A stretch of DNA of 41,813 nucleotides from a bacterium. Lineage in GTDB: Bacteria; Zhuqueibacterota; QNDG01; JABMRT01. The DNA is taken from assembly GCA_016931355.1 (NCBI GenBank), contig JAFGEX010000343.1, positions 1-41,813 on the forward strand, in the 5' to 3' direction. The translations under genes and the position numbers were made by a program. Numbering within the stretch: position 1 is the stretch's first letter; each line of letters begins with the position of its first letter. The notes under the pieces were generated by a model that did not search any database, was not told the origin of the DNA, and worked only from the letters and a program-made list of their open reading frames with translations. Of this stretch, positions 351-40,952 are shown piece after piece.

Positions 351-592
351 TTGAATCTGACAGCGAGCGCATTCCCCACGGCAAGCCGCGGGGTAAGCAC
401 GCGAGCAAACGAACGACCGCGGAGCAGGCGGCTTCATCGGCGGCTTTTGGACGCCGATGAAGAAAGGCGCTTGATGCGCCGGCCAGTTTAAGATCGAGAC
501 TCCCGTGCGGAGCACGGGAGTCGAAGATCAATCCAAATGTCTTTTCCTTATGGATCGAAGGTTCCCTGCCGCTTGCTGCCGGGGAGGTCCAT
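351..592 (+). repeat. Family-1 two-hairpin intergenic repeat, long copy with internal insert
   Basis: Starts TTGAATCTGACAGCGAGCGCATTCCCC, contains AATCCAAATGTC and GATCGAAGGTTCCC...GGGGAGGTCCAT; matches the copies at 5829, 7584 and 36894. Confidence 0.85.
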
Positions 593-606
593 TTTTAAAT
601 AAATCG

Positions 607-635
607 TTGCATTCCTTATTTAATGTTTTTATATT
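607..635 (+). promoter_or_regulatory. sigma70-type promoter of the ars operon
   Basis: TTGCAT (607-612), 17 bp spacer, TATATT (630-635), about 30 bp upstream of arsR. Confidence 0.65.
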
Positions 636-652
636 TCGTTTAATAACGAAAT
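633..652. promoter_or_regulatory. Putative ArsR operator
   Basis: Perfect inverted repeat ATTTCGTT-TAAT-AACGAAAT overlapping the -10 box and start site. Confidence 0.7.
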
Positions 653-666
653 GAGGACAAGAGAAG

Positions 667-1020
667 ATGAAAACAATCGTTAGAATTTTCAAGGCGCTTT
701 CGGATCAGAACCGGATCCGCATCTTGAAGATGCTTCAATCCAGGCCGCTTTGCGTGTGCGAAATCACATCCATCCTGGGTTTGGCCACATCGACGGTATC
801 CAAACACCTTTCCATACTCAAGACGTCCGGATTGATCTCGGACCGGAAGGATGCCAAATGGGTCAATTACGAAATCGATTTAAATTCCGGAGATCCGGAG
901 GTTGACCGTGTTCTTCGGCTCATGCGGGGCATGCTGGAAAAAGACGAAGTAATCAGGACGGACCGTAAAAAAGTTACCACGGTCGACCGAAACCGCATCT
1001 GCAGCACGGAATCGTCTTGA
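667..1020 (+). CDS. arsR: ArsR/SmtB family metalloregulator
   Basis: FKALSDQNRIRIL, LCVCEIT As(III) motif, STVSKHLSILK HTH; heads the ars cluster. Confidence 0.93.
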   Translation: MKTIVRIFKALSDQNRIRILKMLQSRPLCVCEITSILGLATSTVSKHLSILKTSGLISDRKDAKWVNYEIDLNSGDPEVDRVLRLMRGMLEKDEVIRTDRKKVTTVDRNRICSTESS

Positions 1021-1054
1021 TTTGAATCAAATGAAAAGAGATTGGATCTGAATC

Positions 1055-5828: not shown

Positions 5829-5880
5829 TTGAATCTGACAGCGAGCGCATTCCCCGCCGCTTGCGGCGGGGAGCTTCAAT
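5829..5880 (+). repeat. Family-1 repeat, 52-bp mini copy
   Basis: TTGAATCTGACAGCGAGCGCATTCCCCGCCGCTTGCGGCGGGGAGCTTCAAT: left end fused directly to the right-end hairpin. Confidence 0.85.
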
Positions 5881-7583: not shown

Positions 7584-7698
7584 TGAATCTGAGAGCGAGC
7601 ATATTCCGCGGGGCTTGCCCCGGGAAAAGCGAATGAATATCAATGTCTTTTTCCCTCTAGATCGAAGATTCCCCGCCGCTTGCGGCGGGAGCTTCAAT
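7584..7698 (+). repeat. Family-1 repeat, full copy
   Basis: TGAATCTGAGAGCGAGC...GGGGCTTGCCCC...AATGTCTTTTT...GATCGAAGATTCCCCGCCGCTTGCGGCGGGAGCTTCAAT; sits inside the ABC cluster. Confidence 0.88.
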
Positions 7699-7710
7699 CC
7701 GGAGGTTTCT

Positions 7711-9708: not shown

Positions 9709-10923
9709 CTAGTGGATTCTCATCGCCTTGGCCGGTCGGATATGCGCCGCCCGCAAGGCCGGGAAGACGCTGACCAGCGATGCGGACAGGAAGACCGACA
9801 AACCCGGCAGATACAACGTGCGCGCATTTACGGCCGAGTACATCTTGTCAAACGTGACGCCTCCGTAGGTAAACGGAGTCGGTATCGTGACTCCATGAAC
9901 GGACAAAAACCGGTTGATCAGCATGCTGACGCAGATCCCCAGAACGATGCTTGCCAGCGTGATGAGGTTGACCTCGCATACGACCTGCCAGAAAATCTGG
10001 CTCGGGCGGGTGCCGACGGCCTTTGCCATGCCGTATTCCCGGGTGCGCTCCAGCACCGACATCAGAACCGTGTTCAACACGCCGATGGACACAATCAGCA
10101 CGATCACAAAGATCATGATCCACATGCCCTCCAGATCGGCTTTCATCGCGTGATAAAAGGATCTGGCGAATTCCTGCCAGGGTTCCACCGACAATCCCGG
10201 TGCATGGAGCCGTTCCCTGATTGTTCGGGTCAGCCTGTCGATCGAATGAAGGTTTTTGGCAATCACGGCGATTTCATGAACCTGCGAGGGAAGGACGAAC
10301 AGTGCCTGGGCGTCCGCAAGATGCATGTAAACGGACATGCGGTCGCTCGTCTCCTCCCCGCTTTGAATGATGCCGACGATGCGGTACAAATCGTTGGCGA
10401 TGGAGCCGTCGGCTGCCTGCGACACCATGATCAATTCGTCGTCAACCGTCGCCTTCAGAACCTCCGCCAATGATTTTCCCAAAATGACACCGTGTTCCGC
10501 CCGCCCGCCGAAGGCCTTTCCGGAAATGATTTTTTGATTGAACCGCGTCGCCCGCTGTTCCCTTTCCGGATCGATCCCGATGATCTGAACGGCCGCGCTG
10601 TTGTCGCCGACGGATGCCAATCCCGCCGAATACAGCCTCGGCGTCCAGGTCTCCACGCCGGCCAGTCCCTGAATGGCCTGCCCGATTTGTTCGTAACGTT
10701 TGATGGAATTGTAAATCGAAGGCTTGTCCAGGTACCCTTTGCCGTGCACCTGAATATGACCCAGGCGATTCCGCGTGAACATGTCGATGATGTTGTTGTA
10801 AGTGCCGTCCGACCAGCCGATTGAAATCGCGGACAGGACGAAGCCGCCGAACATGGTAAGCAGGGTGAGGACAGTCCTCCGTTTCTGACGAAGGGTGTTT
10901 CGGAGTGCAATTTTGAATATCAT
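9709..10923 (-). CDS. ABC transporter permease (LolC/E, MacB/FtsX type)
   Basis: ALRNTLRQKRRT, NTVLMSVLERTREYGMAKAVG, FPALRAA. Confidence 0.92.
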   Translation of the reverse strand: MIFKIALRNTLRQKRRTVLTLLTMFGGFVLSAISIGWSDGTYNNIIDMFTRNRLGHIQVHGKGYLDKPSIYNSIKRYEQIGQAIQGLAGVETWTPRLYSAGLASVGDNSAAVQIIGIDPEREQRATRFNQKIISGKAFGGRAEHGVILGKSLAEVLKATVDDELIMVSQAADGSIANDLYRIVGIIQSGEETSDRMSVYMHLADAQALFVLPSQVHEIAVIAKNLHSIDRLTRTIRERLHAPGLSVEPWQEFARSFYHAMKADLEGMWIMIFVIVLIVSIGVLNTVLMSVLERTREYGMAKAVGTRPSQIFWQVVCEVNLITLASIVLGICVSMLINRFLSVHGVTIPTPFTYGGVTFDKMYSAVNARTLYLPGLSVFLSASLVSVFPALRAAHIRPAKAMRIH

Positions 10924-18768: not shown

Positions 18769-18779
18769 GGCTGATTTTC

Positions 18780-26655: not shown

Positions 26656-26807
26656 CGAATCTCTCCTCTGGCCTGTTCCCCGCGATCTGCCGCGCGGGAG
26701 CGGGCGCGAGAACGGTCCGGATCACTGCGACGCATCTTCAAGGCGCGTCGCAGTTCACGAAACTGCGGATCGAAGATTCCCCGCCTTTTGAAGCGGTGAG
26801 CTTCAAT
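26656..26807 (+). repeat. Family-1 repeat, degenerate copy with inserted hairpin
   Basis: Right end GATCGAAGATTCCCCGCC...GAGCTTCAAT; internal stem ACTGCGACGC/GCGTCGCAGT. Confidence 0.7.
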
Positions 26808-27877: not shown

Positions 27878-28021
27878 TTGAAATCCGGCGGCGGGCCCTT
27901 TCCCCGGGGCTTTCCGCTGGGCTTGCCCCGGGCCTTGTCCCGCGGCAAGCGGGCGAATGCGAACAGCCATTTTTCCTGAAGATCAAAAATTCTCCGGAAG
28001 CCGGCTTCCGGGGGGCTTCAA
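27878..28021 (+). repeat. Family-1 repeat, degenerate copy
   Basis: TTGAAATCC...GGGCTTGCCCC...AAGCGGGCGAAT...GATCAAAAATTCTCCGG...GGGGCTTCAA. Confidence 0.65.
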
Positions 28022-28155: not shown

Positions 28156-28271
28156 CGAATCGGACGGCGCGCGCATTTTCCGCGGCTTGCCGCGGGGCGT
28201 ATAAGCGTCTATTCATGTCTTATCCTTGCAGATCGAAGATTCTTCTCCGGGAGCTGCCGGGGAGATTCAAT
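28156..28271 (+). repeat. Family-1 repeat, full copy just upstream of the MFS gene
   Basis: GAATCGGACGGCGCGCGCATT...CCGCGGCTTGCCGCGG...ATGTCTT...GCAGATCGAAGATTC...GGGGAGATTCAAT. Confidence 0.8.
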
Positions 28272-28291
28272 TATAGGTAGGTAATAGTTAT

Positions 28292-29473
28292 ATGTCCATG
28301 CCTGCCAAGCGGGCCATCCGAATCAATTATTTCTTTTTCGCATTCGCCATGGGGGGCGCATTCCCCTACCTGGCTCCGTATTTCAAGGAAAATCTCGGCG
28401 TCACCGATTATACGCTGGGCCTGCTGCTCATGCTGAGGCCTGCAGTGGCCATTCTGTCCCAGCCTTTCTGGAGCTATTTCGCGGACAGGCACGGCCACAG
28501 GGCGCGCATAGCGGCCGGCCTGGCCGTGGCGGCCGGCGTTCTGTTCCCGCTCGTCTGGTTGGCCAGACCCATGGGCCTGTTGGTACTGGCCATCATGGCC
28601 TTTGCCTTCTTCAATGCCCCGCTCAACACGCTTGCAGACAGCCTGACCTTCGACTATCTCGGCCATCACAAGCGGATGCGTTTCGCCAATTTCCGCATTT
28701 TTGCATCGCTCGGTTTCGTCACAGCCGTGGCACTGATCGGCAAGGTGTACGACCGGTTCGGCATCCATTGGCTGTTCGCCGCGTATTCGATCAGCACCCT
28801 GATCGCGGTCTTTTTTCTCCTGAAAATCCCCTCCAACGGCAATTCGAGACCCTCCAGCTCCGGATGGAAAGAACTCGTGCTCCTGCTGCGGAAGCGGAAC
28901 GTGCTGCTCTTCCTGATATCCGTGCTGCTTGTCGAGACGGCAAACCAGATGTCCCACGCCTATCTGAGCGTGTACGGCAAGGCGCTGGGCGCCAATAATG
29001 CGCAGGCCGGATGGATCTGGGCTGTGGCGACACTGGCGGAAATGGTGACCATGTACCATTTCTCGAAGATAGCGGGTCGGCACGGCATCTGGAACATCCT
29101 TGCCGTGGGCATGGGAACCGCCATCCTCCGCTGGACGCTTTTCGCGTTCATGCGCGTCTGGTGGCAGCTTATCCCGCTGCAGCTCATGCATATCTTCACA
29201 TTGACCTTCGTGTATGTCGGATCCGCCATTTTTATGGATCTGGAAAGCCCGGCCTCGATACGCTTCACGGCCCAGGCCTTTTACAGCACATTCGTGCTCA
29301 ACGCCGGCATGATCATCGGCAGCATCGCGGGCGGAGCCATCGCGCATCGCTGGGGCTATTCGTCGATTTTCCTGTTTTCCGGGGGATTGTCGCTGATCGG
29401 CACCCTGGTCTTCATCCTGTTCGTCAAACCGCCGCAGGCCCATGAATCCCACGGGCAACCGGTTCAGGCATGA
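28292..29473 (+). CDS. MFS transporter (MFS_1-like, sugar/nucleoside type)
   Basis: About 12 TM segments; QPFWSYFADR, F.NFRIFASLGF, RFTAQAFY. Confidence 0.9.
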   Translation: MSMPAKRAIRINYFFFAFAMGGAFPYLAPYFKENLGVTDYTLGLLLMLRPAVAILSQPFWSYFADRHGHRARIAAGLAVAAGVLFPLVWLARPMGLLVLAIMAFAFFNAPLNTLADSLTFDYLGHHKRMRFANFRIFASLGFVTAVALIGKVYDRFGIHWLFAAYSISTLIAVFFLLKIPSNGNSRPSSSGWKELVLLLRKRNVLLFLISVLLVETANQMSHAYLSVYGKALGANNAQAGWIWAVATLAEMVTMYHFSKIAGRHGIWNILAVGMGTAILRWTLFAFMRVWWQLIPLQLMHIFTLTFVYVGSAIFMDLESPASIRFTAQAFYSTFVLNAGMIIGSIAGGAIAHRWGYSSIFLFSGGLSLIGTLVFILFVKPPQAHESHGQPVQA

Positions 29474-29491
29474 GGGGCGGCTGAAGCTGCC

Positions 29492-30250
29492 CTATCCGCC
29501 GAAATCCACCAGAAGCACATTTTTAAAGGAATAGACGGACCGGACCACGCCTTCGGGCGGCCGTGTGTCGTGGAGGTTATTGAAGCTCAATGAGATCGAG
29601 AAGCGTTTGGAAATCCGCATCAGGAAATCCGTTTGCGAGGCTGTCCTGAAGTCCGCCGGATCATCGATGCGGGGCTGAAAATAAGTGGTCTGAACCAGAG
29701 TGACGATGTCCGACAGCTTCCAGGTCCAGGAGGCATAGCTGCTCAGGCGGAATTGATCGGCGATGATGCCGGCCGTCTCCAGTTCCTCGTGTTCGAACAT
29801 GGGCAGGGCCGCCAGATAAAGACGGAATGATTCCACCGCGACGATCCGGAACCGCGGGCCCGCGCCCAGAAGTCCCCTGAAACGGACCGCCAGGATCTTG
29901 TTGGACTGCGCCTGCGTGAACGCCTCAGCCGTGAACCAGGGCCTGAACTTACGGTTGAAACGAAAATGCACGAACCCCGAGTTTGAAAAGTCCGAACGGT
30001 CCGCACGCAAAAATCCGTAATCGGCCAGAAACAGCGACAGGGTGCGCTGCGTCTTGAACTGGACGTGGAACCTTCCGCTCAGATTCAGCACCTGTTTCTG
30101 GTTCTTGATGATGTCGAAGGAGACCCTGGCGTTTCCGGACCAGCCGGTGGTATCCGTGCGGATGCGCTCCTGCTCGATGTTGAGGACCTGGCCTGATGAG
30201 GCCCCGGCCAGGATGGAGAAAAAGATGAAGGCAAGAAACGGCTTGTTCAT
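29492..30250 (-). CDS. DUF481-like outer-membrane beta-barrel protein
   Basis: Start MNKPF, signal peptide then QVLNIE..R; GFVHFRFN, EAFTQ, GAGPRF, YFQPR motifs. Confidence 0.75.
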   Translation of the reverse strand: MNKPFLAFIFFSILAGASSGQVLNIEQERIRTDTTGWSGNARVSFDIIKNQKQVLNLSGRFHVQFKTQRTLSLFLADYGFLRADRSDFSNSGFVHFRFNRKFRPWFTAEAFTQAQSNKILAVRFRGLLGAGPRFRIVAVESFRLYLAALPMFEHEELETAGIIADQFRLSSYASWTWKLSDIVTLVQTTYFQPRIDDPADFRTASQTDFLMRISKRFSISLSFNNLHDTRPPEGVVRSVYSFKNVLLVDFGG

Positions 30251-30308
30251 GGGTGTACCCGAACGGGATGCGGATGAGGGAGAAGAAGCGCAATCCGTCC
30301 CGCGGCGG

Positions 30309-30391
30309 ATTGAAGCACCCCGGTATCGTGCCGCCGGGGGATAGTCGATCGGCAAGGATGATCACTTTTGTATTTGTTTGCGGTCAGATCA
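30309..30391 (-). repeat. Family-1 repeat, reverse copy
   Basis: ATTGAAGCACCCCGG...CCGGGGGATAGTCGATC...CGGTCAGATCA is the reverse complement of the consensus ends. Confidence 0.65.
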
Positions 30392-31468
30392 TCTCTTGAC
30401 CCGCGCATTCCCCTCCCAGATGCTCCAGATTTCCTCTTCATCCGCGGGCTGCGCGTAATCGGTGAGCAGGGTAGTGGCCAGCGCGCCGCCGGCCCAGCCG
30501 AATTGAACCCATTTTTCAGGCTCCCATCCCCTGAGCACAGCGTGGAGAAGGCCGCCCACAAACGCGTCCCCGCCTCCGATGCGGTCGAGCACGGCGATTT
30601 CGCGCGGCCCCACGACATGCCAGCTGTCCCCTGCATACAGGATGGCGCCCCATTTGTGCAGGTTGGCGTTCACGACTTCGCGCAGGGTTGTGGCGAATAC
30701 GGACGCTGCGGGATAGGCTTTCCTGACCCGTCCGATCATTTCCTTGAAGCTGTCGATCTTGCCCGCCAGCCCCTTGCCGCCCGCCTCGGGCCCCTCGATC
30801 CCCAGGGCCAGCTGGAAGTCCTCCTCGTTCCCCACGAGGATATCCGCAGATCCGGCGATCTGGTGGAAAATGTCCCTGAGTTCCTTCTGCCGGTTTTTCC
30901 AGAACGAGGCCCTGTAGTTGAGGTCGAATGAGATTCGGGTACCGTGCTTTTTCGCTGCCTTCGCCAGCCCCAGGCAGAATTCGCCTGTTTCCGGTGAAAG
31001 TGCTGCGATCAGGCCGGACAGGTGCAGGATCTGCACGCCTTCCTTTCCGAAGATGCGCTCCAGATCGAAATCCCTGACGTTCAGCGTGCGGCCCACCTCG
31101 CCGGCGCGGTCGTTGTGCACGCGCGGGCCGCGCGAACCTTTCCCGCTGTCCGCGATGTTGAACTGATGCCGGAATCCCCACGGGCCGCCCTGTTCGACCT
31201 CTTTGCCTTCGACATCCATGTGCCGGCCCGCGAGATCGTCCTTGATCAGGCGCGCCACCGGGCTGCCCTTGACGAATGTGGTGAGCACCTTCACGCGCAT
31301 GCCGAGAAACGCAGGGATGCTCGCCACATTCGTTTCAGCGCTGGTGGCCTGGAGGAAGAAGTTCCTGCTTGCGTGCACGGGCTGTCCTTCTGCAGGCGTG
31401 ATTCGCACGCCCATGCTCGAAGGCACGAGCAGGGCATATCGCGAGTCTTTGCGGAGTTCCATGTCCAT
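30389..31468 (-). CDS. PfkB family sugar kinase (KdgK-like)
   Basis: SAETNVA, ISFDLNYRASFW, GNEEDF, DRIGGGDAF PfkB signature. Confidence 0.88.
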   Translation of the reverse strand: MDMELRKDSRYALLVPSSMGVRITPAEGQPVHASRNFFLQATSAETNVASIPAFLGMRVKVLTTFVKGSPVARLIKDDLAGRHMDVEGKEVEQGGPWGFRHQFNIADSGKGSRGPRVHNDRAGEVGRTLNVRDFDLERIFGKEGVQILHLSGLIAALSPETGEFCLGLAKAAKKHGTRISFDLNYRASFWKNRQKELRDIFHQIAGSADILVGNEEDFQLALGIEGPEAGGKGLAGKIDSFKEMIGRVRKAYPAASVFATTLREVVNANLHKWGAILYAGDSWHVVGPREIAVLDRIGGGDAFVGGLLHAVLRGWEPEKWVQFGWAGGALATTLLTDYAQPADEEEIWSIWEGNARVKR

Positions 31469-31495
31469 CCTTTCGGTTCGGGCGACCCCGGGGTA

Positions 31496-31545
31496 CTGAC
31501 AATTCCGGGGCTTGCCCCGGAATCAGCGAGCGAATCCAAATGTCT
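31496..31545 (+). repeat. Family-1 repeat, partial left/central copy
   Basis: CTGACAATTCCGGGGCTTGCCCCGGAATCAGCGAGCGAATCCAAATGTCT. Confidence 0.7.
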
Positions 31546-31616
31546 ACATCCAAACGGACCCCGGGGTACAATCCGGGACGCTGAAACTGCGACGCAACTC
31601 GAAATTGCGACGCATT

Positions 31617-33101
31617 TCAGCCGGCGAACGGATTCTCAGTCGGGTAATACGTCCCCTTCGGCAGGTTGAAGGAAATGTCCGGTACGCCGAGCGCCTTCAT
31701 GACTTCGAAAATGGATTTGCCCGCATGCCGGAACGCGACCGCCGTGTGATGCGGGAAGCGTTTTTCGATCAGCACATGGCGGTAGAAACGTCCCATTTCC
31801 CGCACCGCGAAGATGCCGATCCCGCCGAAGGATTTGGGATCCAGGTCCAGAACCTCCGCCTCCGCGATATAACCCTTGAGCTGCGTGTCCGCAGTGGACT
31901 GGATGCGGAATATCGTGGCTTCGCCCGGCCGGATCCGGCCTTCGAGCGTGCCGCGCGTGATGTCCGGATTCTTCCCCGGCTCCATGAGCCGGTGCATGAT
32001 GAGCTGGTATTTCATCTCGATGTTCGCCATGCATGAGGCGGGCGTATTCCCGCAGTGGAACCCCATGAACAGGTCGGTCGGCTTGTAGTCCCCCACGGTT
32101 TTCCTGCCCGCCTCGATCAGGTCATAGGGCACCGTATTGTTGATGTCCAGTAAAGTGGCGGGCATTTCCGTGACGCAGCCGGCCACATATTCGCTGAGCA
32201 CGCCGTATATGTCCACTTCGCAGGAAACGGGTATGCCGCGGCCGGCCAGCCTGGAATTCACGTAGCAGGGCACGAATCCGAAGTATTTCTCGAAAGACGG
32301 CCAGCATTTGTTTGCGAAAACGCCGTATTCTGAGGCGCCGAGATTTTTTTCCATGAAATGGAGCAGTGCCACCTCGTGCTGGGCCAGCTTTTTCAGAATG
32401 TCCGGATGCTTGTTCCCGACACCGAGTTCCTTTGCCATGTCCTTTGCAACAGCCTCGATTTCCGCGCTGTCCTTTGCGGACAGGAAGGCATCGTACAGAT
32501 CCAGTTCGCTGTTCTCCATGATTTCGACGCCCAGGTCGTAGAGCGCCTTGACGGGCGCATTGCAGGCGAGGAAATCCTGCGGCCTGGGACCGAACGAAAA
32601 AATCTTCAGCCTGCGCAGGCCCAGCAGGGCGCGTGCAACAGGCATGAAATCCGCGATCATGCCAGCGATTTCATCCGGCGTTCCGACCGGATACTCCGGG
32701 ATGTAGGGGCGCAGCTTCCTGAGCCCGATGTTGTAGGAGGCGTTCAGCATGCCGCAATAGGCATCCCCGCGGCCTCCGACCAGGTCCTTCCCCGTCTCCT
32801 CCGCAGCAGCCGCGAACATGACCGGGCCGCCGAATTTCTGCGCCAGCAGGGTTTCAGGGCCTTCGGGCCCGAAATTCCCCAGATAAACGAGCAGGGCGTT
32901 GACGCCTTCCTTCTCGATTTCCTTCAATGCCTTGAGCGCATCCGCTTCGTTTTCAACCGTTGTCTTGAGCTCTGTGACAGGGATTTTCTTCGCCTTGCAT
33001 GCTGCGGCGACAAGGGAGCGCCGCTTCTGGGAAAGCTCGATGGGGAAGCAGTCCCGGCTGACCGCCGTGATTCCCATGCGAACCTGGGGGACATTGTTCA
33101 T
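31617..33101 (-). CDS. L-fucose/L-arabinose isomerase-family protein
   Basis: VSRDCFP, YLGNFGPE, RGDAYCG, NKCWP, CEVDIYG, MGFHCGN, FPHHTAV; RBS AGGAG. Confidence 0.85.
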   Translation of the reverse strand: MNNVPQVRMGITAVSRDCFPIELSQKRRSLVAAACKAKKIPVTELKTTVENEADALKALKEIEKEGVNALLVYLGNFGPEGPETLLAQKFGGPVMFAAAAEETGKDLVGGRGDAYCGMLNASYNIGLRKLRPYIPEYPVGTPDEIAGMIADFMPVARALLGLRRLKIFSFGPRPQDFLACNAPVKALYDLGVEIMENSELDLYDAFLSAKDSAEIEAVAKDMAKELGVGNKHPDILKKLAQHEVALLHFMEKNLGASEYGVFANKCWPSFEKYFGFVPCYVNSRLAGRGIPVSCEVDIYGVLSEYVAGCVTEMPATLLDINNTVPYDLIEAGRKTVGDYKPTDLFMGFHCGNTPASCMANIEMKYQLIMHRLMEPGKNPDITRGTLEGRIRPGEATIFRIQSTADTQLKGYIAEAEVLDLDPKSFGGIGIFAVREMGRFYRHVLIEKRFPHHTAVAFRHAGKSIFEVMKALGVPDISFNLPKGTYYPTENPFAG

Positions 33102-33117
33102 GTGTATTCTCCTGTTT

Positions 33118-33209
33118 TTTTAATCTCTAAGGGTAAAATTCGCCTCCTGGGGGTCATTGTGTTTTGGATTTTCGCTTGATACCCCACTGCCTGCAGCGGA
33201 GCGGTTCAT
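33118..33209 (+). repeat. Family-2 hairpin repeat
   Basis: TTTTAATCTCTAAGGGTAAAAT...GATACCCCACTGCCTGCAGCGGAGCGGTTCAT aligns with 35671-35765. Confidence 0.6.
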
Positions 33210-33294
33210 GCGATGCGTGTATCATTCCCCGCTTCCCGGGGCTGATGATGTTTCCGGTTTTCTTTTACTGCCCCGCTTCCTGCTGCAGGGGCAA

Positions 33295-33993
33295 TCATTT
33301 TTTCTGCCCGTAGGTTGCGTCCCTGCCGTGCTTGCGCAGATAATGTTTGTCGATCAGGGACTTGTTCAGCCGCGGTGCGCCGGGACGGATCTCGAGGGTC
33401 ATCCAGGCCATGCGGGCGATCTCCTCCAGCATGACGCTGTTATAGACCGCCTTTTCGGCCGTGGCCCCCCATGTGAATGGGCCGTGGCCCGCGACCAGCG
33501 CCATCTCGATTTCGCGGCAGGTTCTTCCGGCCAGGGCCTTCACGATCGCCAGTCCGGTCTCCTCCTCATAATCGCCCTTGACCGATCTGTTTGTCAGGGG
33601 CCTGGTGCAGGGGATGTCGAATGCGAGATGGTCCGCATGCGTGGTCCCGAGAATAGGTATGGGCAGGCCGGCCTGGGCCCACGCAACAGCGCAACCCGAA
33701 TGCGTGTGGCAAACGCCCCCGATTTCCGGGAAATGCCTGTACAGCACAGCATGGGTTTTTGTGTCCGACGACGGCCTGAGCTTTCCCTCCACAATCCGGT
33801 TTTCCAGATCCACGACGACCATATCGGAGGGCTTGAGCGCATCGTAGGGGATCCCGCTCGGCTTGATGGCGAACACGGCCCTGTCCCGGTCCGCAGCGCT
33901 GACATTCCCGAAAGAATACCGGACCAGGCCCTGCACCGGGAGGTCCATGTTGGCTTCCCAGGCGATGCGCTTCAACTCGCGGAAACGGTTCAT
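33295..33993 (-). CDS. araD: L-ribulose-5-phosphate 4-epimerase
   Basis: FGNVS, AIKPSG, PSSDT.TH, HTHS, GTTHAD, HGPFTWG, KHG..ATYGQ; ATGA-coupled to araB. Confidence 0.93.
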   Translation of the reverse strand: MNRFRELKRIAWEANMDLPVQGLVRYSFGNVSAADRDRAVFAIKPSGIPYDALKPSDMVVVDLENRIVEGKLRPSSDTKTHAVLYRHFPEIGGVCHTHSGCAVAWAQAGLPIPILGTTHADHLAFDIPCTRPLTNRSVKGDYEEETGLAIVKALAGRTCREIEMALVAGHGPFTWGATAEKAVYNSVMLEEIARMAWMTLEIRPGAPRLNKSLIDKHYLRKHGRDATYGQKK

Positions 33994-35660
33994 GGGGTGA
34001 ATTCCTTTTCGACCCATGTACTGAGCCTGGAATAGCGCTCGTAAAGCGCCATGTATTTCTTGCGGCTGGATGCATCCGGCTTGTAGGTTTTTTCGAATCC
34101 GTTTCCCATGGCCTTTTGGGCGGACGGGATGTCCTTGTATATCCCGGCCGCAACTGCTGCGAACATGGCGGCGCCGAGAGCAGTGGCCTGCTCCAGGCGC
34201 GCGACCTGAATCGGCATATCCAGAACATCCGCCACCACCTGCATGACATAGGGCGCCTTTTTGGGAATGCCCCCGATGGCGATGACCCCCTGGATGGGTA
34301 TGCCTTCCTCCGTGAAACGGTCCACGATTTTCCTGGCGCCGAATGCCGTGGATTCCACAAGCGCCTTGAATACGCGCGGCGCATCCGATCCCAGATTCAT
34401 GGATGCGATCGCGCCCTTCAGCATCTGATTGGCGTAGGGTGTGCGCCTTCCGTTGAACCAGTCCAGGGCCACGATCCCGGTCTCATCCGGCGGGATCTGG
34501 GCAGCCGCCTTGGAAAGGGCCGGGATAACTGCCGAGGAGATCTGCCTGTAAAGCTCCTCTGAGTCCTTGAACGGGGAGGTCTGCATGAGCAGGTTGTCAA
34601 TGGGCCACAGGATCAATTTTTTGAACCAGGCATATACGTCTCCGAAGGCGGATTGTCCGGCTTCCATCCCGAGCATGCCCGGTATGATGGAACCGTCCAC
34701 CTGCCCGCAAATGCCCTTGATGAGCTTATCCCCGATTTCCTTGTTCGGAGCCACCAGCATGTCGCAGGTGGATGTGCCCATGGCCTTGCACAGGATGTAG
34801 GGCTTGATTTCCCCCCCGACCGCTCCCATGTGCGCGTCAAAAGCCCCCACACTGACCGGGATGCCTTCCGGGAGGCCCAGCCTGCCCGCCCATTCCGCGG
34901 AAAGGCCCCCGAATACAGCGTCCGATGTATAGGTTTCGCTGAACAGCCTCTGCCTCAGGCCCTGAAGCGCAGGATCCAGCCGGGTCAGGAAAGCCTCTGA
35001 GGGGAGCCCGCCCCAGGAGGGATGCCACATGGCCTTGTGTCCAGCTGCGCAGCGGCTGCGCTTGAGGGTCAGGGGATCTGCGAGCCCGGTCAGAAGGGCG
35101 GGGATCCAGTCGCAATGTTCCACCCAGGAGAAGGCGGCCTCCCGCACCTTTCTGTCTTTTCTCAGCGTATTGAGGATTTTCGCCCAGAACCATTCAGAGG
35201 AGTACACGCCGCCCTCGAACCGGGTAAAATCCCCTTCCGGCCATGTCCCGGCCAGCGCATTGATCTCCTCCGCCTCCCGCACAGCCGTATGATCCTTCCA
35301 CAGGATGAACATGGCGTTCGGATTGTTCTTGAATTCCTCCAGCAGCGCAAGCGGAGTTCCGCTCTTGTCCACAGCCACGGGCGTGGACCCGGTCGTGTCC
35401 ACGGCTATGCCCGCCACGCTTTCCGCAACGCCCTTGGGGCATTTGGATAGGGCTTCCCGGACCGCTGCTTCGAGGGATTCGATGTAGTCCAGCGGATGCT
35501 GGCGGAACTGGTTGGCGTTCGGATCGCAGTACCGGCCCTCCGACCAGCGCCTGTAATGGGAAACGGCATTGGCGGTTTCCTCGCCGTTGCGGGCGTTCAC
35601 CACGACCGCGCGTACGGAATCCGTGCCGTAATCCATGCCGATGACGAATGGATCTTTCAT
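33990..35660 (-). CDS. araB: Ribulokinase
   Basis: GMDYGTDSVRA, QFRQHP.DY, LWKDHTA, YSSEWFWAK, CAAGHKAMW, EAGQSAFGD. Confidence 0.95.
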   Translation of the reverse strand: MKDPFVIGMDYGTDSVRAVVVNARNGEETANAVSHYRRWSEGRYCDPNANQFRQHPLDYIESLEAAVREALSKCPKGVAESVAGIAVDTTGSTPVAVDKSGTPLALLEEFKNNPNAMFILWKDHTAVREAEEINALAGTWPEGDFTRFEGGVYSSEWFWAKILNTLRKDRKVREAAFSWVEHCDWIPALLTGLADPLTLKRSRCAAGHKAMWHPSWGGLPSEAFLTRLDPALQGLRQRLFSETYTSDAVFGGLSAEWAGRLGLPEGIPVSVGAFDAHMGAVGGEIKPYILCKAMGTSTCDMLVAPNKEIGDKLIKGICGQVDGSIIPGMLGMEAGQSAFGDVYAWFKKLILWPIDNLLMQTSPFKDSEELYRQISSAVIPALSKAAAQIPPDETGIVALDWFNGRRTPYANQMLKGAIASMNLGSDAPRVFKALVESTAFGARKIVDRFTEEGIPIQGVIAIGGIPKKAPYVMQVVADVLDMPIQVARLEQATALGAAMFAAVAAGIYKDIPSAQKAMGNGFEKTYKPDASSRKKYMALYERYSRLSTWVEKEFTP

Positions 35661-35670
35661 GTCTTCCCCG

Positions 35671-35765
35671 TTTTAATCTCTATGGATCAAATGACCCGCC
35701 CTTCGGGGCGCGTCCTGTTTCCCTCGTTTTTGGGCACGCCGCTGCTTGCGGCGGGATCGTTCATT
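35671..35765 (+). repeat. Family-2 hairpin repeat
   Basis: TTTTAATCTCTATGGATCAAATGACCCGCCCTTCGGGGCG...CCGCTGCTTGCGGCGGGATCGTTCATT. Confidence 0.6.
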
Positions 35766-36795
35766 ATTGATAATAATCGATATTCTCCCGGGTCAGGATG
35801 TCCAGCGGCATCATGATGCGGCTTTCCACCTTCTCCCGGAAGAGAAGATGCCTGCACAGGCAGTCGATGCTCCGGTATCCCTGGAGGTCCGGTTTCTGGC
35901 TGATCAGAAAGTCGATGGATCCCTCCCTGAGCAGCCGGACGTTCCGGGGTATCAGGTCGTATCCGATCAGGCGGAATTTCCGTTTTGATCGTATTTCCTG
36001 CAGGGCCCCGACAATGCGGTGCATGGAGGCGTCGGTTACGAATATCCCTTCCAGGTCCGGCAGGGATTCGATTTGGGATGCAAACCGCTTTGTAAACAGC
36101 GCGGGGCTTTCCTCGCCCTGCATGCTGATCGTGAAAACCGGCGCGATCCCGCAGTCCCGGTAATGGGAGAGGAAGCCGGCCGCGCGCCGGTCGATATGAT
36201 AATCCTCGGGAAGTACGCGCAGGACCGCCACATCCATTCCTTCACGGATGATGTTTTTCATGAGCGAGGCGGCCAGGACGCCCCCCTGGAAGGGATCCTG
36301 TCCGATGAAACTCAAGGGCTCGACCGTGGGGATGGATGAATCGATGAACACAAAGGCGAGGTCCTGCGGTAATTTCCGGATGAACCGTTCCGTGGCCCAT
36401 GGCAACACGGGCGCGATGACGAGGCCGTCCACCCTGTCCGCCAGAGCCTGCTTTCCGGCCTCCACGAAGGAGGCCTCCGAATACCGGTCGAAATGATAGG
36501 CCTGCGTGCGGATATGGTAGGATTGGAAATCCCTGCCTGCTTTTTCAATGCCCGCCATGGGGATTTCCCAGTATCCCCCGTCCTGCGCAGGCTCGGGCGT
36601 CAGGATGCCGAATGTGAACACACGGGTTCTTTTCAGGTTCTGGGCGAATGCATTGGGTTTGTATTTCATTTCCTCGATGATGAACCGGACTTTTTCCTCG
36701 GTCTCTTTGGACACGCGGCCGCGTTTATGAATGACGCGGTCCACTGTTCCGATGGAAACATGCGCTTTTTTTGCTATGTCTTTGATTGTCGTCAA
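35764..36795 (-). CDS. LacI family regulator of the ara cluster (TTG start)
   Basis: TIKDIAKKAHVSIGTVDRVIH, YKPN..A..L, IGYDL, FLISQKP. Confidence 0.92.
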   Translation of the reverse strand: MTTIKDIAKKAHVSIGTVDRVIHKRGRVSKETEEKVRFIIEEMKYKPNAFAQNLKRTRVFTFGILTPEPAQDGGYWEIPMAGIEKAGRDFQSYHIRTQAYHFDRYSEASFVEAGKQALADRVDGLVIAPVLPWATERFIRKLPQDLAFVFIDSSIPTVEPLSFIGQDPFQGGVLAASLMKNIIREGMDVAVLRVLPEDYHIDRRAAGFLSHYRDCGIAPVFTISMQGEESPALFTKRFASQIESLPDLEGIFVTDASMHRIVGALQEIRSKRKFRLIGYDLIPRNVRLLREGSIDFLISQKPDLQGYRSIDCLCRHLLFREKVESRIMMPLDILTRENIDYYQ

Positions 36796-36815
36796 GTTAA
36801 AACCAATAAAATCAG

Positions 36816-36837
36816 ATTGCGTTATGGTTCACGCAAT
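36816..36837. promoter_or_regulatory. Putative operator of the ara-cluster regulator
   Basis: Inverted repeat ATTGCGT-N8-ACGCAAT overlapping the -10 box. Confidence 0.6.
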
Positions 36838-36863
36838 ATAACAGGTTTTAATGGATTAGTCAA
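36835..36863 (-). promoter_or_regulatory. sigma70 promoter of the ara cluster
   Basis: Minus strand TTGACT, 17 bp spacer, TATATT. Confidence 0.7.
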
Positions 36864-36893
36864 GTGGAAATCGGAAAGGAATCCGGCTTTATG

Positions 36894-37115
36894 TGAATCG
36901 GACAGCGAGCGCATTCCCCTTTTAGCCTGCTCCGGGATAAGCGAGCGAATCCAAATGTCTTTTTTTGCAGATCGCAGATTCCCCGCCGCGGGCTGCCGGG
37001 GAGCTTCAATCAGGGTGCATACCCTGAGTCTTGCCGCCGGCAAGCGAGCGGGCAGGCGTGTCTTTTTCCCGGAGAGACCGAAGTCTCCCCGCTTCGAGTC
37101 GGCCGGGAATCCTAT
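36894..37115 (+). repeat. Family-1 repeat: full copy (36894-37010) plus degenerate tandem copy
   Basis: TGAATCGGACAGCGAGCGCATTCCCC...GGGGAGCTTCAAT, then GTGCATACCC...AAGCGAGCG...TGTCTTTTTCCC...GACCGAAGTCTCCCCGC. Confidence 0.85.
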
Positions 37116-37137
37116 TATCCTGGATTCATAAATGTCC

Positions 37138-37166
37138 TTGACATTCAACAATAGGTTTTATATATA
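37138..37166 (+). promoter_or_regulatory. Possible sigma70 promoter
   Basis: TTGACA, 17 bp spacer, TATATA upstream of the 37232 gene. Confidence 0.5.
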
Positions 37167-37231
37167 TCCTTTGTACGCTATCCTTTTGCCCGGCTTCCAT
37201 TCATGCTGTTTCACTCAAGACAGGAGGATCT

Positions 37232-38479
37232 ATGAGTACGGAGATTCCGTTCATCGCAGCATCCTGTATCCTGCTGCTTTCCCTGGCATCGGCAGACGGC
37301 GGTCAGCCTGTGGACATCAAGGTGCTTTGCAAGGAAGTGAACGCGGACATTCGCGCCGTTGAAAAGATGAGGGATAAAGACACGGCTGTGGCCAAAATTG
37401 CGGAAATCCGCAAAAAAATTGATGCCATAGCGAAGCTGGATCCGGGTTACTTCGAGCTGCGCGGCCTCGAGACCAAGTACAAGCGGCTCACAGGCATATA
37501 CGGGGCGCCTGCGGGAACGGCTGCTCCCGCCGCGAAACCTGCGCCGGACCCGGGCCGGTCCGCCTCTTCTCCTGAAAGGGAGCAGGCATTGAAGGACTGG
37601 CAGGAGATCAGTCAATTGAGAAGGGGCTTCCTCAAGGACGTGGAAACGGTCATCCCCTCCTATGTGAAAAACGTCATATACAGCGACAGCGACATCGACG
37701 AGGTCATTGCCAAAATACGTTCATTCCAGGCCCAGGCCCCCGGTGTCAAGGCCAGGCTGGAGGCGTTCCGCAAAAAGTACGGTTCGGACCCGGATGAAAT
37801 TGACAGGAAAATGGAGGATCTGAAACCCGGAAACCAAAGGCCCCCGGACTCGGCCGGACGATGCTTCTCCGAATTGTCAAACGGATTGACGAACCTGGAA
37901 GAGGCGCCGAAGATAGAAGCGAAAAAAATCCTGGCGGGCGTGCTTTCGAGCCTGGACCGGATTGAGAACTTCATTGCGGACACGGAGCGCGACAGGAGAT
38001 ATCAGGAACTGGAGGCGAGCATACAGAAAGGGCTCAAATTCAATCCCCAGGACGCGGAACTCAAGGAATGGGCCTTGAAGATCAAAACGCTCAGGCAGAA
38101 ATCGCAGGCGGACATTGAAAAATCTCTGGATGCGGCGCGCTTTCCGGGTCACATGACCGGTTTCGCAGGGCCGGGCGGCGTGGATGAGCTCGCGGCTTCC
38201 TGCGTTAAATATTTCAATGAGTCGGATCCCTCCCAGACCACGGTCAAGGTCAGCATTGCGGGCAACTGGGTCGTGGCGAAGGAGAACATTTTCGGGGAGC
38301 CGGTTCAATGGGGACTGCCCATATGGGCGGTCGGATACAAGAACGACAACCGGGAGATCGCCCGGGTATTCAAACTGACCATTTTGACAGGGGAAGCATT
38401 GGGAATTTCCAAGAGCCCGCCCTGGACCGGCCAGTGGGTGGGCGATTCCTACAGGATGCGCACGGCCAATATTAAATGA
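37232..38479 (+). CDS. Hypothetical secreted protein, helical N-terminal part and beta-rich C-terminal domain
   Basis: RBS AGGAGG, signal peptide, Pro/Ala linker, 415 aa; no family recognised. Confidence 0.75.
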   Translation: MSTEIPFIAASCILLLSLASADGGQPVDIKVLCKEVNADIRAVEKMRDKDTAVAKIAEIRKKIDAIAKLDPGYFELRGLETKYKRLTGIYGAPAGTAAPAAKPAPDPGRSASSPEREQALKDWQEISQLRRGFLKDVETVIPSYVKNVIYSDSDIDEVIAKIRSFQAQAPGVKARLEAFRKKYGSDPDEIDRKMEDLKPGNQRPPDSAGRCFSELSNGLTNLEEAPKIEAKKILAGVLSSLDRIENFIADTERDRRYQELEASIQKGLKFNPQDAELKEWALKIKTLRQKSQADIEKSLDAARFPGHMTGFAGPGGVDELAASCVKYFNESDPSQTTVKVSIAGNWVVAKENIFGEPVQWGLPIWAVGYKNDNREIARVFKLTILTGEALGISKSPPWTGQWVGDSYRMRTANIK

Positions 38480-38553
38480 TTTATCCCGCCAGGGGGGTGC
38501 TTCGCCGAGTGCTCCTGCGGACAAACGGCCCGGACGCGTGTAGCGTGTGTTTT

Positions 38554-38666
38554 TTGAAACCTCCCGGAAGCGGGGAGAGTTGGATTTTTGATCTCTCCGG
38601 GGAGAAGACATTTAAGCTGCTTGCTTACGCAGCAGCAGGCTGTGGGGGATGCGCTCGCAGCCCGAT
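38554..38666 (-). repeat. Family-1 repeat, reverse degenerate copy
   Basis: TTGAAACCTCCC...GATC...AAGACATTT...GCTTA...GGGGGATGCGCTCGCAGCCCGAT matches the reverse-complement consensus. Confidence 0.7.
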
Positions 38667-38816
38667 GGATTTTCATTTTGAAGAACCACGATGTTTTATA
38701 TTCGGAACGGTTTTTGCATATTTGTCATAAATTACGAAGTACATGGAAATTGAAACGATATGCATCGTTCAAAGCCGTTTTTGATTTCATTTTGGGATGC
38801 GTGATGGGGTCATCAG

Positions 38817-40253
38817 ATGGCCAGGCTGCTCATTGTTGACGACGAAGCGGTTATTCTGATTCAACTCAAGGAATATCTCCGCGACATGGGGTACGAGGTG
38901 GCGGGAACCGCCGTGTCCGGAGAGGACGCTGTGGAAAAAGCCAGGGAGTTGAATCCGGACCTGATCCTGATGGACATCTACCTGGCGGGCAGAAAGCTCG
39001 ACGGGATCTCGGCTGCCGTCAAGATCAAGGATGAGATGAACATCCCCGTTATTTTTATGACGGCTTTCGGCGGCGATCAGGTTCTGGAGCGCGTAAAAAA
39101 CGTCGAGCCCTACGGCTTTGTCCTCAAGCCCTTTCAGAACACGGAACTGAAGGCTGCCATTGACGTGGCCATGATACGCAAGGACATGGAATCCCGCCTG
39201 AGGGAGTCCGAGGCGAAGCTCCGGTCCGTGGTCGATACAGCCAACGAGGCCATCATCACAACGAACAATCTCAATCAGATCATTTTCTGGAACCGGGCCG
39301 CGCATTCCTATTTCGGCTACACGGAACAGGAAGCCCTGGGCCGGACCCCGCGGCTGCTGTTTCCGGGAAAGGACGCGGATTACATCGAACCGGAGATGGA
39401 GAGGATCATCGCTTCAGGTAAATCCGAACTGCTGGGGATAAATTTCGAAGTGACCGGCCGCCGGAAGAACGGAAGCGAATTTCCCATGGAATGCTCGCTG
39501 GCGACCTGGAGGGTGAACCGCCAGGTTTTCATGACCCTGATCGGCAAGGACATCACGGAACGGAAGAAGATCGATCAGATGAAGAGCGATTTTGTGTCCC
39601 TGGTCTCCCATCAGCTGCGCACGCCCCTGGCCGGGATCATGGGCTGCGTGGACAACATGCTCTGGGGCCTGACCGGGACGCTGAGCTTCAAGCAGATGGA
39701 ATACCTGCAGGTCATGAAGGAAATCAGTTCGCGCGGATACCGGATCATTGCGAACCTCCTCAACATTTCGCGCCTGGAACGCGGCGTCATCTCCATGGAC
39801 ATACGGCCGGTTGATTTGTGCTATGTGGCGAGGAATGCGGCGAATGAGCACAGCGCTGCGATCGAAAGCAAAGGCCTCAAGCTCACAGTCGAAGCTCCGG
39901 ACGGGCAGATCCTCGTCCTGGCGGACAAGGACAAACTTTTCGAGGCGATCAGCAACGTGGTTCACAACGCCTCCAAATTCACGGATGCGGGGAAAATTTC
40001 CGTACGCATCTTCAGTGACGATTCTCACGGGAAGGTCAAAATTTCAGACACGGGCCCCGGCATTGAACCGGCGGGCATGAAATACCTGTTCAGCCGGAAC
40101 CAGATTCTGTCCGGAAACGCCACTTACAAGGGCGGATGCGGGCTCGGCCTGTTCATTTCCAAGCAATTCATGCAGCTTCAGAACGGGGACGTGGACGTTC
40201 AATCCAGGCGGGGAAAGGGCGCGGCGTTTACTTTTCGCATCCCCCTGGCTTAA
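38817..40253 (+). CDS. Hybrid histidine kinase (REC-PAS-HisKA-HATPase)
   Basis: LIVDDE...LILMDI receiver; WNRAA...G.RKNGSEFPME PAS; SHQLRTPL, NASKFT, DTGPGI, GLGL. Confidence 0.93.
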   Translation: MARLLIVDDEAVILIQLKEYLRDMGYEVAGTAVSGEDAVEKARELNPDLILMDIYLAGRKLDGISAAVKIKDEMNIPVIFMTAFGGDQVLERVKNVEPYGFVLKPFQNTELKAAIDVAMIRKDMESRLRESEAKLRSVVDTANEAIITTNNLNQIIFWNRAAHSYFGYTEQEALGRTPRLLFPGKDADYIEPEMERIIASGKSELLGINFEVTGRRKNGSEFPMECSLATWRVNRQVFMTLIGKDITERKKIDQMKSDFVSLVSHQLRTPLAGIMGCVDNMLWGLTGTLSFKQMEYLQVMKEISSRGYRIIANLLNISRLERGVISMDIRPVDLCYVARNAANEHSAAIESKGLKLTVEAPDGQILVLADKDKLFEAISNVVHNASKFTDAGKISVRIFSDDSHGKVKISDTGPGIEPAGMKYLFSRNQILSGNATYKGGCGLGLFISKQFMQLQNGDVDVQSRRGKGAAFTFRIPLA

Positions 40254-40288
40254 GGCGGCTCAAGGGTGAGATCATTAAGGAGGAACAT

Positions 40289-40672
40289 ATGGATGAGGAC
40301 CGCAAACCGAAGATTCTGATCATCGAAGACGAGGCCGTGTTCCGGCTCATCTATCGCGGCGTGCTCGAGAGCCACAATTACAAGGTTTTCGAGGCGGACA
40401 CGGGGATGGCGGGCCTGGATCTCGCCAAGACCGAGCGTCCGGACATGATTCTGCTCGACCTCATCCTGCCGGACATCAGCGGGTACGAGGTGCTCAAGAA
40501 GATCAAGGCGCACGACCTGACCTGCACCATCCCCGTCATCGTCTTTTCCGTCATGGGGACGGAGGAGAACATTGAGAAGGCCAAGGAACTGGGCGCGGAT
40601 TATTACCGGGTCAAGGGAGCCAATTCGCCCAGCGATATCCTGAAGGAAATCGAGAGGATCATCGGCGCTTGA
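40289..40672 (+). CDS. Single-domain response regulator
   Basis: RBS AAGGAGG; ILIIEDE, ILLDLILPDISG, IPVIVFS. Confidence 0.92.
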   Translation: MDEDRKPKILIIEDEAVFRLIYRGVLESHNYKVFEADTGMAGLDLAKTERPDMILLDLILPDISGYEVLKKIKAHDLTCTIPVIVFSVMGTEENIEKAKELGADYYRVKGANSPSDILKEIERIIGA

Positions 40673-40952
40673 ACCTGACCGTGCGAGTCGGTGAGCGAAT
40701 CCGGATGTCTCTTTCCCCGCAGATCGAAGATCCCCCGGCAGCCCGGTTCGGGGGCTTACACCTGGGGGCGGGCGCATCCCCCGGGGCTTGCTCCGGGGCA
40801 GACGGTCGAATACGCATGTTTTTGCCTTCAGGATCGAAGAGATGAAGGCGGCTTGTCCGGGACTTCAAACTGACGGAGGCCGCATCCCCCGGGGATTGCA
40901 GCGAAAAAACATGGGGGATCCGTTCGGATTTGTTCAGGCGGATCGGGGATTC
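40669..40952 (+). repeat. Family-1 repeat, three degenerate head-to-tail units
   Basis: GAGCGAATCCGGATGTCT...GCAGATCGAAGATCCCCC...GGGGCTTACA; GCGCATCCCCCGGGGCTTGCTCCGGGG...GATCGAAGA...GACTTCAA; CTGACGG..CGCATCCCCCGGGG...GATCG. Confidence 0.7.

Follow-up and report, generated by a model that had tools for sequence, protein, structure and literature searches.

A high-copy two-hairpin repeat of PATE type, probably related to IS200/IS605, in the genome of an uncultured sediment bacterium

What is the short two-hairpin repeat that recurs between the genes of a 41,813-nt contig from an uncultured sediment bacterium (JAFGEX010000343.1 of assembly GCA_016931355.1, phylum Zhuqueibacterota), and how has it spread? 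The contig was analysed at its full length and is referred to below as the window. A preliminary description of its sequence had named 11 loci with the repeat and had read it mainly as a non-autonomous IS200/IS605-like element of the type of the palindrome-associated transposable elements (PATEs). The present results point the same way. Insertion sites that are empty in related species, a right end in TTCAA, the distances between the hairpins and the cuts, and the complementarity of short guide sequences indicate that the repeat is probably a non-autonomous, PATE-like element of the IS200/IS605 type, which moves by single-strand 'peel-and-paste' transposition with a Y1 enzyme of the HUH class. 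Elements of this kind are already known; what is new is this family, which is unusually large and cleanly resolved. It makes up about 2% of the genome and breaks its assembly.

The mobile unit and its target site

The window is one entire contig (C76) of a draft assembly, denoted G000, which comprises 3.89 Mb in 412 contigs with a G+C content of 56% and is 84% complete. The consensus of the genomic copies reads (T)TGAA^TCTGACAGCGAGCGCATT-CCCCGCGG CTTG CCGCGGGG-TAAGCGAGCGAATACAAATGTCTTTTTCCCTACAGATCGAAGATT-CCCCGGCAG CTCG CTGCCGGGG-AGCTTCAA^TC, where ^ marks the boundaries, and conservation falls to background outside it. The mobile unit extends from TCTGACAG to GAGCTTCAA, lies directly 3' of TGAA and is laid out as TCTGACAGCGAGCGCATT, hairpin 1, a spacer, GATCGAAGATT, hairpin 2 and AGCTTCAA. 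The column frequencies at the left boundary are T85 G99 A95 A96 ^ T96 C93, and the right boundary follows TTCAA. Among the 166 copies with both exact ends, the most frequent length is 111 nt (57 copies), and lengths divisible by three are over-represented (89 copies). The two-hairpin layout given in the preliminary description holds, with similarity beginning at (T)TGAATC and ending at CTTCAA(TC) in the genomic consensus. Of the boundaries proposed there, the right end in TTCAA stands, whereas the leading TGAA proved from the empty sites to be the target and to lie outside the element.

Filled and empty sites were compared at five orthologous positions in four species of one related genus (G003, G009, G015 and G022), whose orthologous DNA is 81-93% identical. 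Each of the five sites is occupied by a copy in one genome, and between one and three of the other genomes lack this copy precisely. The filled sites read xTGAA^TCTG...TTCAA^flank. The empty sites read xTGAA^flank, with a single TGAA, at three of the five loci and carry diverged variants of the target at the other two. At locus L003, G009 has ...TTCCA TTGAA (TCTGACAG...GAGCTTCAA) ATCAAG..., and three species are empty: G015 and G022 read ...TTCCC TTGAA ATCAGG..., and G003 has TTGTC at that place. At locus L005, G003 has ...CCTTG TTGAA (element) TCGATCAG..., and the three other species are empty with TCGATCA kept. Three further copies of G009 follow GTGAA, ATGAA and CTGAA(A), and for each of them between one and three of the other species are empty. 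This comparison, which had been proposed in the preliminary description, places the insertion exactly 3' of TGAA without target duplication at all five sites. Contigs of one sediment metagenome and two metatranscriptome sets, compared with positions 26000-41813 of the window, gave only cross-joins from repeat to repeat, with no empty sites and no usable information on transcripts. At locus L099 (~10728-10891; G009 compared with G003 and G015) the insertion lies right after the ATGAA that opens a putative lipoprotein gene, and the element thus stands after the start codon in the G009 species.

The genomic copies agree with the five sites. Matching flanks of at least 2 nt are not above chance among the 108 anchored copies of 211 (k = 2: 2 observed vs. 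6.8 expected; k of at least 6: 0 observed). With TGAA counted as target, the ends TCTGACAG... and ...AGCTTCAA show no inverse complementarity, so that the element has no terminal inverted repeats. The first two flanking bases 3' of the insertion are biased (T in 90%, C in 77%), and TC pre-exists in three of the five empty sites. Thus, the preferred target is TTGAA^TC.

Comparison of the ends with IS608

In the published accounts cited here, IS608 inserts 3' of TTAC and has a right end in TCAA. Its left cleavage site (CL, TTAC) lies 19 nt 5' of the foot of the left hairpin and its right cleavage site (CR, TCAA) 10 nt 3' of the right foot, and the left and right guides (GL, AAAG; GR, GAAT) stand directly 5' of the feet, with T-4:A+17 and T-3:A+16 paired (PMC3201880, PMC5934647). 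In the present family the left cut is 18 nt from the foot of hairpin 1 and the foot of hairpin 2 is 8 nt from the right cut. The 4 nt located 5' of the hairpin feet are CATT on the left and GATT on the right. The IS608 pairing scheme (-4:G2, -3:G1 and -1:G4), when applied to TGAA with CATT and to TCAA with GATT, predicts Watson-Crick pairs at 6/6 positions. The sole difference between CL and CR (G vs. C at -3) is matched by the sole difference between GL and GR (C vs. G at G1). TGAA with CATT and TCAA with GATT are the dominant combinations (141 and 172 of 400 aligned copies, respectively), and the remainder look like decay.

In the mechanism proposed for the family, a dimeric Y1 transposase would bind the top strand at its two similar subterminal hairpins, and CATT and GATT would base-pair with the cleavage sites TGAA in the left flank and TCAA at the right end, as in IS608. 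The strand would then leave its site as a circle and be inserted anew behind another TGAA. The enzyme would act in trans and may have been lost from G000, because the copies there look old. Recombination between the two similar hairpins would generate the one-hairpin forms of 46-52 nt and the three-hairpin forms. The family thereby offers a model that can be tested at the sequence level in its target TGAA^TC, cut sites, guide bases and hairpins, and several hundred copies within one family provide natural variation for studying the recognition of IS200/IS605 ends.

Hairpin structure and decay

Hairpin 1 is CCCCGCGG-CTTG-CCGCGGGG, and hairpin 2 is CCCCGCCG-CTTG-CGGCGGGG or CCCCGGCAG-CTCG-CTGCCGGGG. 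In the 119 of 211 copies from which both hairpins could be excised, the folding energy of the hairpins is about twice that of shuffled sequences (RNA parameters), and CTTG is the commonest loop (59/119 in hairpin 1 and 25/119 in hairpin 2). Well-kept copies of the relatives, folded as single-stranded DNA, form two hairpins with z-scores of -4.4 and -4.7; the window copies have z-scores of -0.05 to -1.8.

The preliminary description had stated that the stems differ between copies but still pair. This is true of two of the 17 stem pairs, in which compensatory switches exceed the shuffle control in 400 copies: one pair of hairpin 1 is C:G in 131 copies and G:C in 71, and one pair of hairpin 2 is A:T in 129 and C:G in 65. 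The other 15 of the 17 are paired no more often than shuffled columns in the same 400 copies. A few master variants that then decayed neutrally would leave this stem pattern; hundreds of individually selected RNAs would not.

Abundance, distribution and activity

All 11 loci named in the preliminary description match the repeat profile, which was built from 211 full genomic copies and searched with nhmmer. Several of the window copies are fragments or decayed (26763-26810, 30305-30381, 31504-31558 and 37014-37108). In total, the profile gives 15 matches in the window (E-values from 6e-31 to 5e-4), and a 21-mer from the spacer occurs twice in the window with up to three mismatches vs. 0.00 occurrences expected from 100 shuffles. 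In the whole assembly, a profile of three copies gave 694 matches, 382 of them full length, on 270 contigs, and the 211-copy profile gave 834 matches at E < 1e-3. Removal of overlaps and merging of neighbours left 557 loci covering 75,049 bp, or 1.93% of the assembly.

The repeat is carried by 13 of the 31 genomes examined of the window's order and by none of 136 genomes elsewhere in the phylum. A first look gave 471 candidates in G000 and 103, 74, 65 and 55 in the four species of the related genus. Loci of homologues of a fucose-isomerase-like protein, with metagenome-assembled genomes at 52-78% identity as the best relatives, have the repeat in 0/18 cases. Within the related genus, copies at non-orthologous loci in different species are 97-99% identical, compared with 81-93% for orthologous flanking DNA, which suggests that the element has either burst recently or been exchanged between species. 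A copy at one further locus is common to two species; together with the polymorphic copies, this indicates insertions of different ages. The 307 copies of G000 that were compared have a median identity of 85% to their nearest neighbour, with 98.3% as the highest value. Judged from these identities, the family seems to have been active recently in the related genus and to be older in G000.

The 382 full copies of G000 show little preference in orientation relative to the genes. Between co-oriented genes, 114 copies are in sense and 88 in antisense; 50 lie in divergent gaps, 30 in convergent gaps and 27 at contig edges, and 73 overlap an open reading frame (ORF) of the crude gene caller. A near-random orientation is expected of spread at the DNA level. 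The family accounts for the odd intergenic hairpins, the 37-residue inserts in proteins such as RapA and the contig breaks met in this bacterial order.

Search for the enzyme and alternative explanations

Several observations weigh against an element of the IS200/IS605 type. The empty sites all come from relatives, and none from G000 itself. The TC bias of the flank is a target preference 3' of the cut that the IS608 paradigm does not have. The guide complementarity amounts to a single contrast between left and right, and the variant copies show decay rather than retargeting. Although single-strand transposition predicts a strand bias with replication, none was detected: neighbouring copies are co-oriented in 153 of 287 cases, compared with 144 +/- 8.6 expected, a bias with GC skew (275 vs. 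171, 62%) is confounded with gene strand on contigs too short for placing the origin, and among the matches listed, copies on large G009 contigs look concordant within contigs and are too few for a test. The enzyme itself was not seen. None of the 35 Y1 loci listed from nine carriers has a copy in its flanks (~2 kb, less at contig ends), a set that leaves 29 further Y1 matches in relatives outside it and is drawn from draft genomes throughout. A metagenome scan with the left end gave 61 loci (197 kb) with 130 profile matches, 67 of them full, and no ORF of at least 70 amino acids in these loci resembles the Y1 set. A Y1/HUH gene or tnpB with the same ends, for which the preliminary description had proposed a search, thus did not turn up in either set. 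A cognate Y1 transposase bounded by the same ends is the only defining feature of an IS200/IS605-derived PATE that is missing; as the repeats sit at contig ends of the draft genomes, the absence of the transposase is not proven.

The single Y1 gene of G000 encodes a RAYT (a tyrosine transposase associated with repetitive extragenic palindromes, REPs). It is split over contigs C51 (1-480) and C40 (1-320), with the break at an internal REP-like stretch, and has three GTAG-headed REPs of different sequence upstream and no copy of the repeat downstream. Clustering of the Y1 proteins gave one type common to all four species of the related genus. It is likewise a RAYT, accompanied by a GTAG REP of its own and in synteny with the RAYT of G000, and was rejected as the likely enzyme. 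Several classical REP/RAYT pairs coexist in these genomes (C51/C40 of G000; loci L034, L033, L050 and L096). A Y1 gene on the short contig C383 of G003 has an upstream hairpin, CCCCGCG..CGCGGGG, that vaguely resembles hairpin 1; the repeat profile does not match it. The Y2 (IS91-type) family PF04986 gave 0 matches in G000, but the control genomes also gave none, so that this search is uninformative.

The family could owe its continued mobility to an HUH or other single-strand enzyme that is neither bounded by these ends nor a RAYT with GTAG REPs. This is possible but rather unlikely. If true, it would represent a second, REP-independent system of a host-resident transposase and a genome-wide hairpin element, in which the full IS608-style asymmetry of left and right ends and the guide-directed targeting of TGAA^TC are retained and the stop-free design of 111 nt would let copies persist inside proteins. 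Spread as a REP or REPIN (a paired REP element) by a RAYT, that is, by HUH chemistry with a domesticated, chromosomally fixed enzyme instead of an IS200/IS605 transposase, appears improbable. RAYT-like Y1 genes occur in 39 of 41 relatives, the sole Y1 gene of G000 is one of them, a copy number in the hundreds with mostly intergenic positions resembles that of REPs, and the autonomous partner of the repeat is missing from the loci searched. However, each RAYT examined (C51 of G000, C19 and C2 of G009, C169 of G003 and C331 of G025) is flanked by its own GTAG-headed REP with different hairpins, and none by the present element, which has no GTAG head and carries its two hairpins in direct rather than inverted order. 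Moreover, its hairpins are conserved across families of the order, whereas the RAYT-linked REPs vary from genome to genome. Insertion by a site-specific recombinase of the tyrosine or serine type at a core of 7 nt, TT(G/C)AATC, which would then bound the element on either side, would explain the quasi-direct repeats TTGAATC and TTCAATC bounding most copies, as well as the conserved TC of the right flank and its presence in empty sites. This origin is very improbable, since the hundreds of dispersed targets have only TGAA(TC) in common, the right flank at L003 is AT instead of TC, no recombinase gene adjoins any window copy, and the IS608-like distances and the guide complementarity would be left unexplained.

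The preliminary description had also considered a structured RNA family, with each copy like an orphan guide scaffold. Such a family could be either a cis-regulatory element or an orphan guide scaffold of TnpB or IscB with the 3' flank as the guide. In its favour, many loops are CTTG and resemble tetraloops, the ends of some copies lie a short way before a start codon (28270, with the start at 28292), and PATEs elsewhere are described as often encoding omega RNAs (PMC10055086). Nevertheless, the copies lie in both orientations relative to genes (114 vs. 88), 15 of 17 stem pairs do not exceed shuffled columns in pairing, and presence/absence polymorphism and in-frame genic insertions fit mobile DNA better. 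Rfam, against which the novelty of the repeat was to be checked, gave 0 window matches at the gathering score; the best match below it, NsiR1 (20.3 bits vs. a gathering score of 39, E = 0.14), is at chance level. The guide scaffold is unsupported because TnpB is missing from all carriers: its zinc-ribbon family PF07282 has matches in 0/13 of them including G000, IscB not having been searched for, and occurs in only one of the 31 genomes of the order, a non-carrier. In addition, the right end of only ~45 nt is short for a guide scaffold. A structured-RNA family is therefore hardly credible. Least credible is an ordinary miniature inverted-repeat transposable element moved by a DDE transposase, of which there is barely a chance. 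The ends TGAATCT... and ...AGCTTCA are weakly inverse-complementary over ~7 nt, but this apparent inverted repeat dissolves because TGAA belongs to the target. There is no target duplication at the five filled/empty sites or among the 108 anchored copies, there is no transposase in the window, and the empty sites already contradict the DDE model.

Copies in the window and variant forms

The gene content of the window is ordinary for a chromosome, comprising arsenic resistance, ATP-binding cassette (ABC) and major facilitator superfamily (MFS) transporters, sugar kinases, LacI regulators and a pentapeptide-repeat protein. In agreement with the preliminary description, no transposase gene was found among the window genes with Pfam. 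The copies are listed in Table 1. Each plus-strand copy has TGAA or a near variant directly 5' of it. Copy 3 sits between two minus-strand genes, and the end of copy 6 is 21 nt from the start of an MFS transporter gene (28292; Pfam).

Table 1. Positions of the repeat copies in the window and of in-frame genic copies on other contigs of the assembly
Feature	Position	Strand	Evidence or gene
TGAA target tetranucleotide left of copy 1	352..355	+	sequence; target status from empty sites
Copy 1	356..591	+	nhmmer 350-404 (model 1-55) and 530-593 (model 55-120)
Copy 2, one-hairpin 'terminal-only' form, 46 nt	5834..5879	+	nhmmer model 2-44
Copy 3, full two-hairpin, 110 nt	7588..7697	+	nhmmer 7584-7702, model 3-124, E 1e-29
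Copy 4	26660..26806	+	nhmmer right end only, 26763-26810, model 74-123
Copy 5, hairpin 1 duplicated (three hairpins)	27883..28021	+	nhmmer 27921-28022, model 20-120, E 4e-15
Copy 6, full, 111 nt	28160..28270	+	nhmmer 28157-28273, model 4-122, E 8e-22
Copy 7, fragment: spacer and right end only	30305..30381	-	nhmmer model 48-124, E 4e-11
Copy 8, fragment: hairpin 1 and spacer, then CTGCGACGCA palindrome	31504..31558	+	nhmmer model 26-80, E 3e-7
Copy 9, full, 112 nt, hairpin 1 decayed	36898..37009	+	nhmmer 36894-37013, model 3-123, E 6e-31
Copy 10, decayed, directly downstream of copy 9	37014..37108	+	nhmmer model 17-112, E 5e-6
Copy 11, decayed near-full	38554..38666	-	nhmmer model 6-119, E 2e-11
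Cluster of 2-3 head-to-tail copies/fragments	40686..40958	+	nhmmer, three matches
In-frame genic copy	C179:7727-7846		RapA
In-frame genic copy	C267:8386-8489		patatin-POTRA-Omp85
In-frame genic copy	C133:3273-3392		ResB/CcsA-like
In-frame genic copy	C232:1146-1262		PD40/DPPIV-like

The window copies illustrate the variant forms of the family. Copy 1 consists of the left end and hairpin 1 (356-404), an insert of ~125 nt (405-529), and the spacer and a right end (530-591) that has decayed to TCCA in place of TCAA. The same insert, of 126-127 nt, is found at model position 55 of six genomic copies, namely that of the window (405-529) and those on C64, C103, C112, C6 and C202. It has two hairpins of its own; the copies that contain it may form a longer subfamily, or it may be a second small element with the repeat as its target. 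Copy 2 has a single hairpin between the 18-nt left arm and the AGCTTCAA tail, and folds as a hairpin of 9 bp (z-score -1.8). A strict pattern finds seven such one-hairpin forms in G000, and one is also present at the metagenome locus L185. Forms with a duplicated hairpin 1, like copy 5, are many in G000. Copy 9, with its decayed hairpin, has a fold z-score of -0.05. The three matches of the cluster (40686-40756, model 43-115; 40762-40871, model 8-122; 40867-40958, model 5-97) follow one another head to tail, and 17 tandem junctions of a right end with a left end occur in G000.

Other sequences are found in or beside the copies. In copy 4 the left end is divergent, the right end is good, and an additional palindrome (CTGCGACGCA...) is nested in the copy. 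Palindromes of the form CTGCGACGCA...TGCGTCGCAG are nested in or beside two copies (window ~26735-26765 and 31560-31620) and may be a further small repeat family. A separate repeat of ~31 nt, similar to TGATGCTCCAATCCCGGGGTGGGCCCCGGGG, occurs three to four times at 18777-19182, in the gap between a gene ending at 18527 and a gene starting at 19291. On contig C255 (4175-4917, locus L137), a copy contains a cassette of 620 nt between hairpin 1 and the spacer with the right end. According to Pfam, the cassette codes for an antitoxin (PF09720) together with a toxin of the ParE type (PF05016), and the outer ends of the copy are intact (TTGAA^TC... and ...GCTTCAA^). Nine pairs of a left and a right end lie 545-1681 nt apart in G000, and no transposase was seen between them by eye, with Pfam run on C255 only.

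Copies inside genes

At 32 of the 557 loci, a candidate read-through ORF crosses the copy and has 90 codons or more on either side of it. For three of these, Pfam domains on both sides of the copy show that the genes are real; they encode RapA, a patatin-POTRA-Omp85 protein and a ResB/CcsA-like protein. The in-frame copies lie in either orientation and add ~37-40 residues. Alignment to the RapA of E. coli (4s20) places the additional residues exactly where the copy lies.

Comparison with known systems

The palindromic elements of Rickettsia, of ~100-150 nt, lie in frame in protein-coding genes and add a peptide loop. The present repeat resembles them in its in-frame genic copies that add a peptide. 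However, such copies are a minority here, and the mechanism of insertion can be inferred.

The likeness to the REP/REPIN and RAYT systems lies in high-copy, mostly intergenic, G+C-rich hairpins that are presumed, in the accounts cited, to be mobilised in trans by a Y1-HUH enzyme (PMC8266576, PMC3337134). In contrast to REPs and REPINs, the two hairpins of the present element are different from each other and in direct order, its left and right ends are defined, and its target is a precise tetranucleotide. With IS608 of Helicobacter pylori, as described in the sources cited above, the family shares insertion 3' of a tetranucleotide retained in the left flank, a right end in TCAA, similar distances between hairpins and cuts (18/8 nt here vs. 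19/10 nt), and a predicted 4-nt guide 5' of each foot that pairs with the cleavage site at -4, -3 and -1, with A at -2. The differences are the target (TGAA vs. TTAC), the guides (CATT/GATT vs. AAAG/GAAT), the third guide base, which is T here and in IS608 an A that inserts into the protein, the additional preference for TC 3' of the cut, and the lack of an internal tnpA or tnpB.

The closest resemblance is to the PATEs of Haloquadratum walsbyi and other elements that consist only of IS200/IS605 ends. These have similar near-terminal palindromes without terminal inverted repeats or target duplication in the descriptions cited (PMC3119063, PMC7290912, PMC10055086). For the Haloquadratum PATEs, terminal-only forms of 52 bp are reported to arise by recombination between the two palindromes (PMC3119063), and the present family likewise has terminal-only forms of ~50 bp. 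Further likenesses are a length too short for a transposase, insertions specific to a strain or species, other repeats nested in the copies, and mobility without an intact cognate tnpA. In contrast to the Haloquadratum PATEs, the family resides in a bacterium from an uncultured lineage of sediments, the loci searched yielded no parental IS605-type element with its ends, its commonest length, 111 nt, is divisible by three, and many genic copies are in frame. One family here has 557-834 copies (1.9% of the genome), compared with the 177-194 PATEs in six families reported in total for Haloquadratum. The articles retrieved describe PATEs in haloarchaea, one PATE-like sequence in Halanaerobium, a single sequence against the hundreds found here, and several in Geobacillus; the parts of this literature covered, with ISfinder outside the scope of the search, mention no bacterial PATE at the present copy number. 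Movement of the ends only, with no visible cognate tnpA, echoes the puzzle of Haloquadratum and makes this family a good place to seek the trans-acting enzyme.

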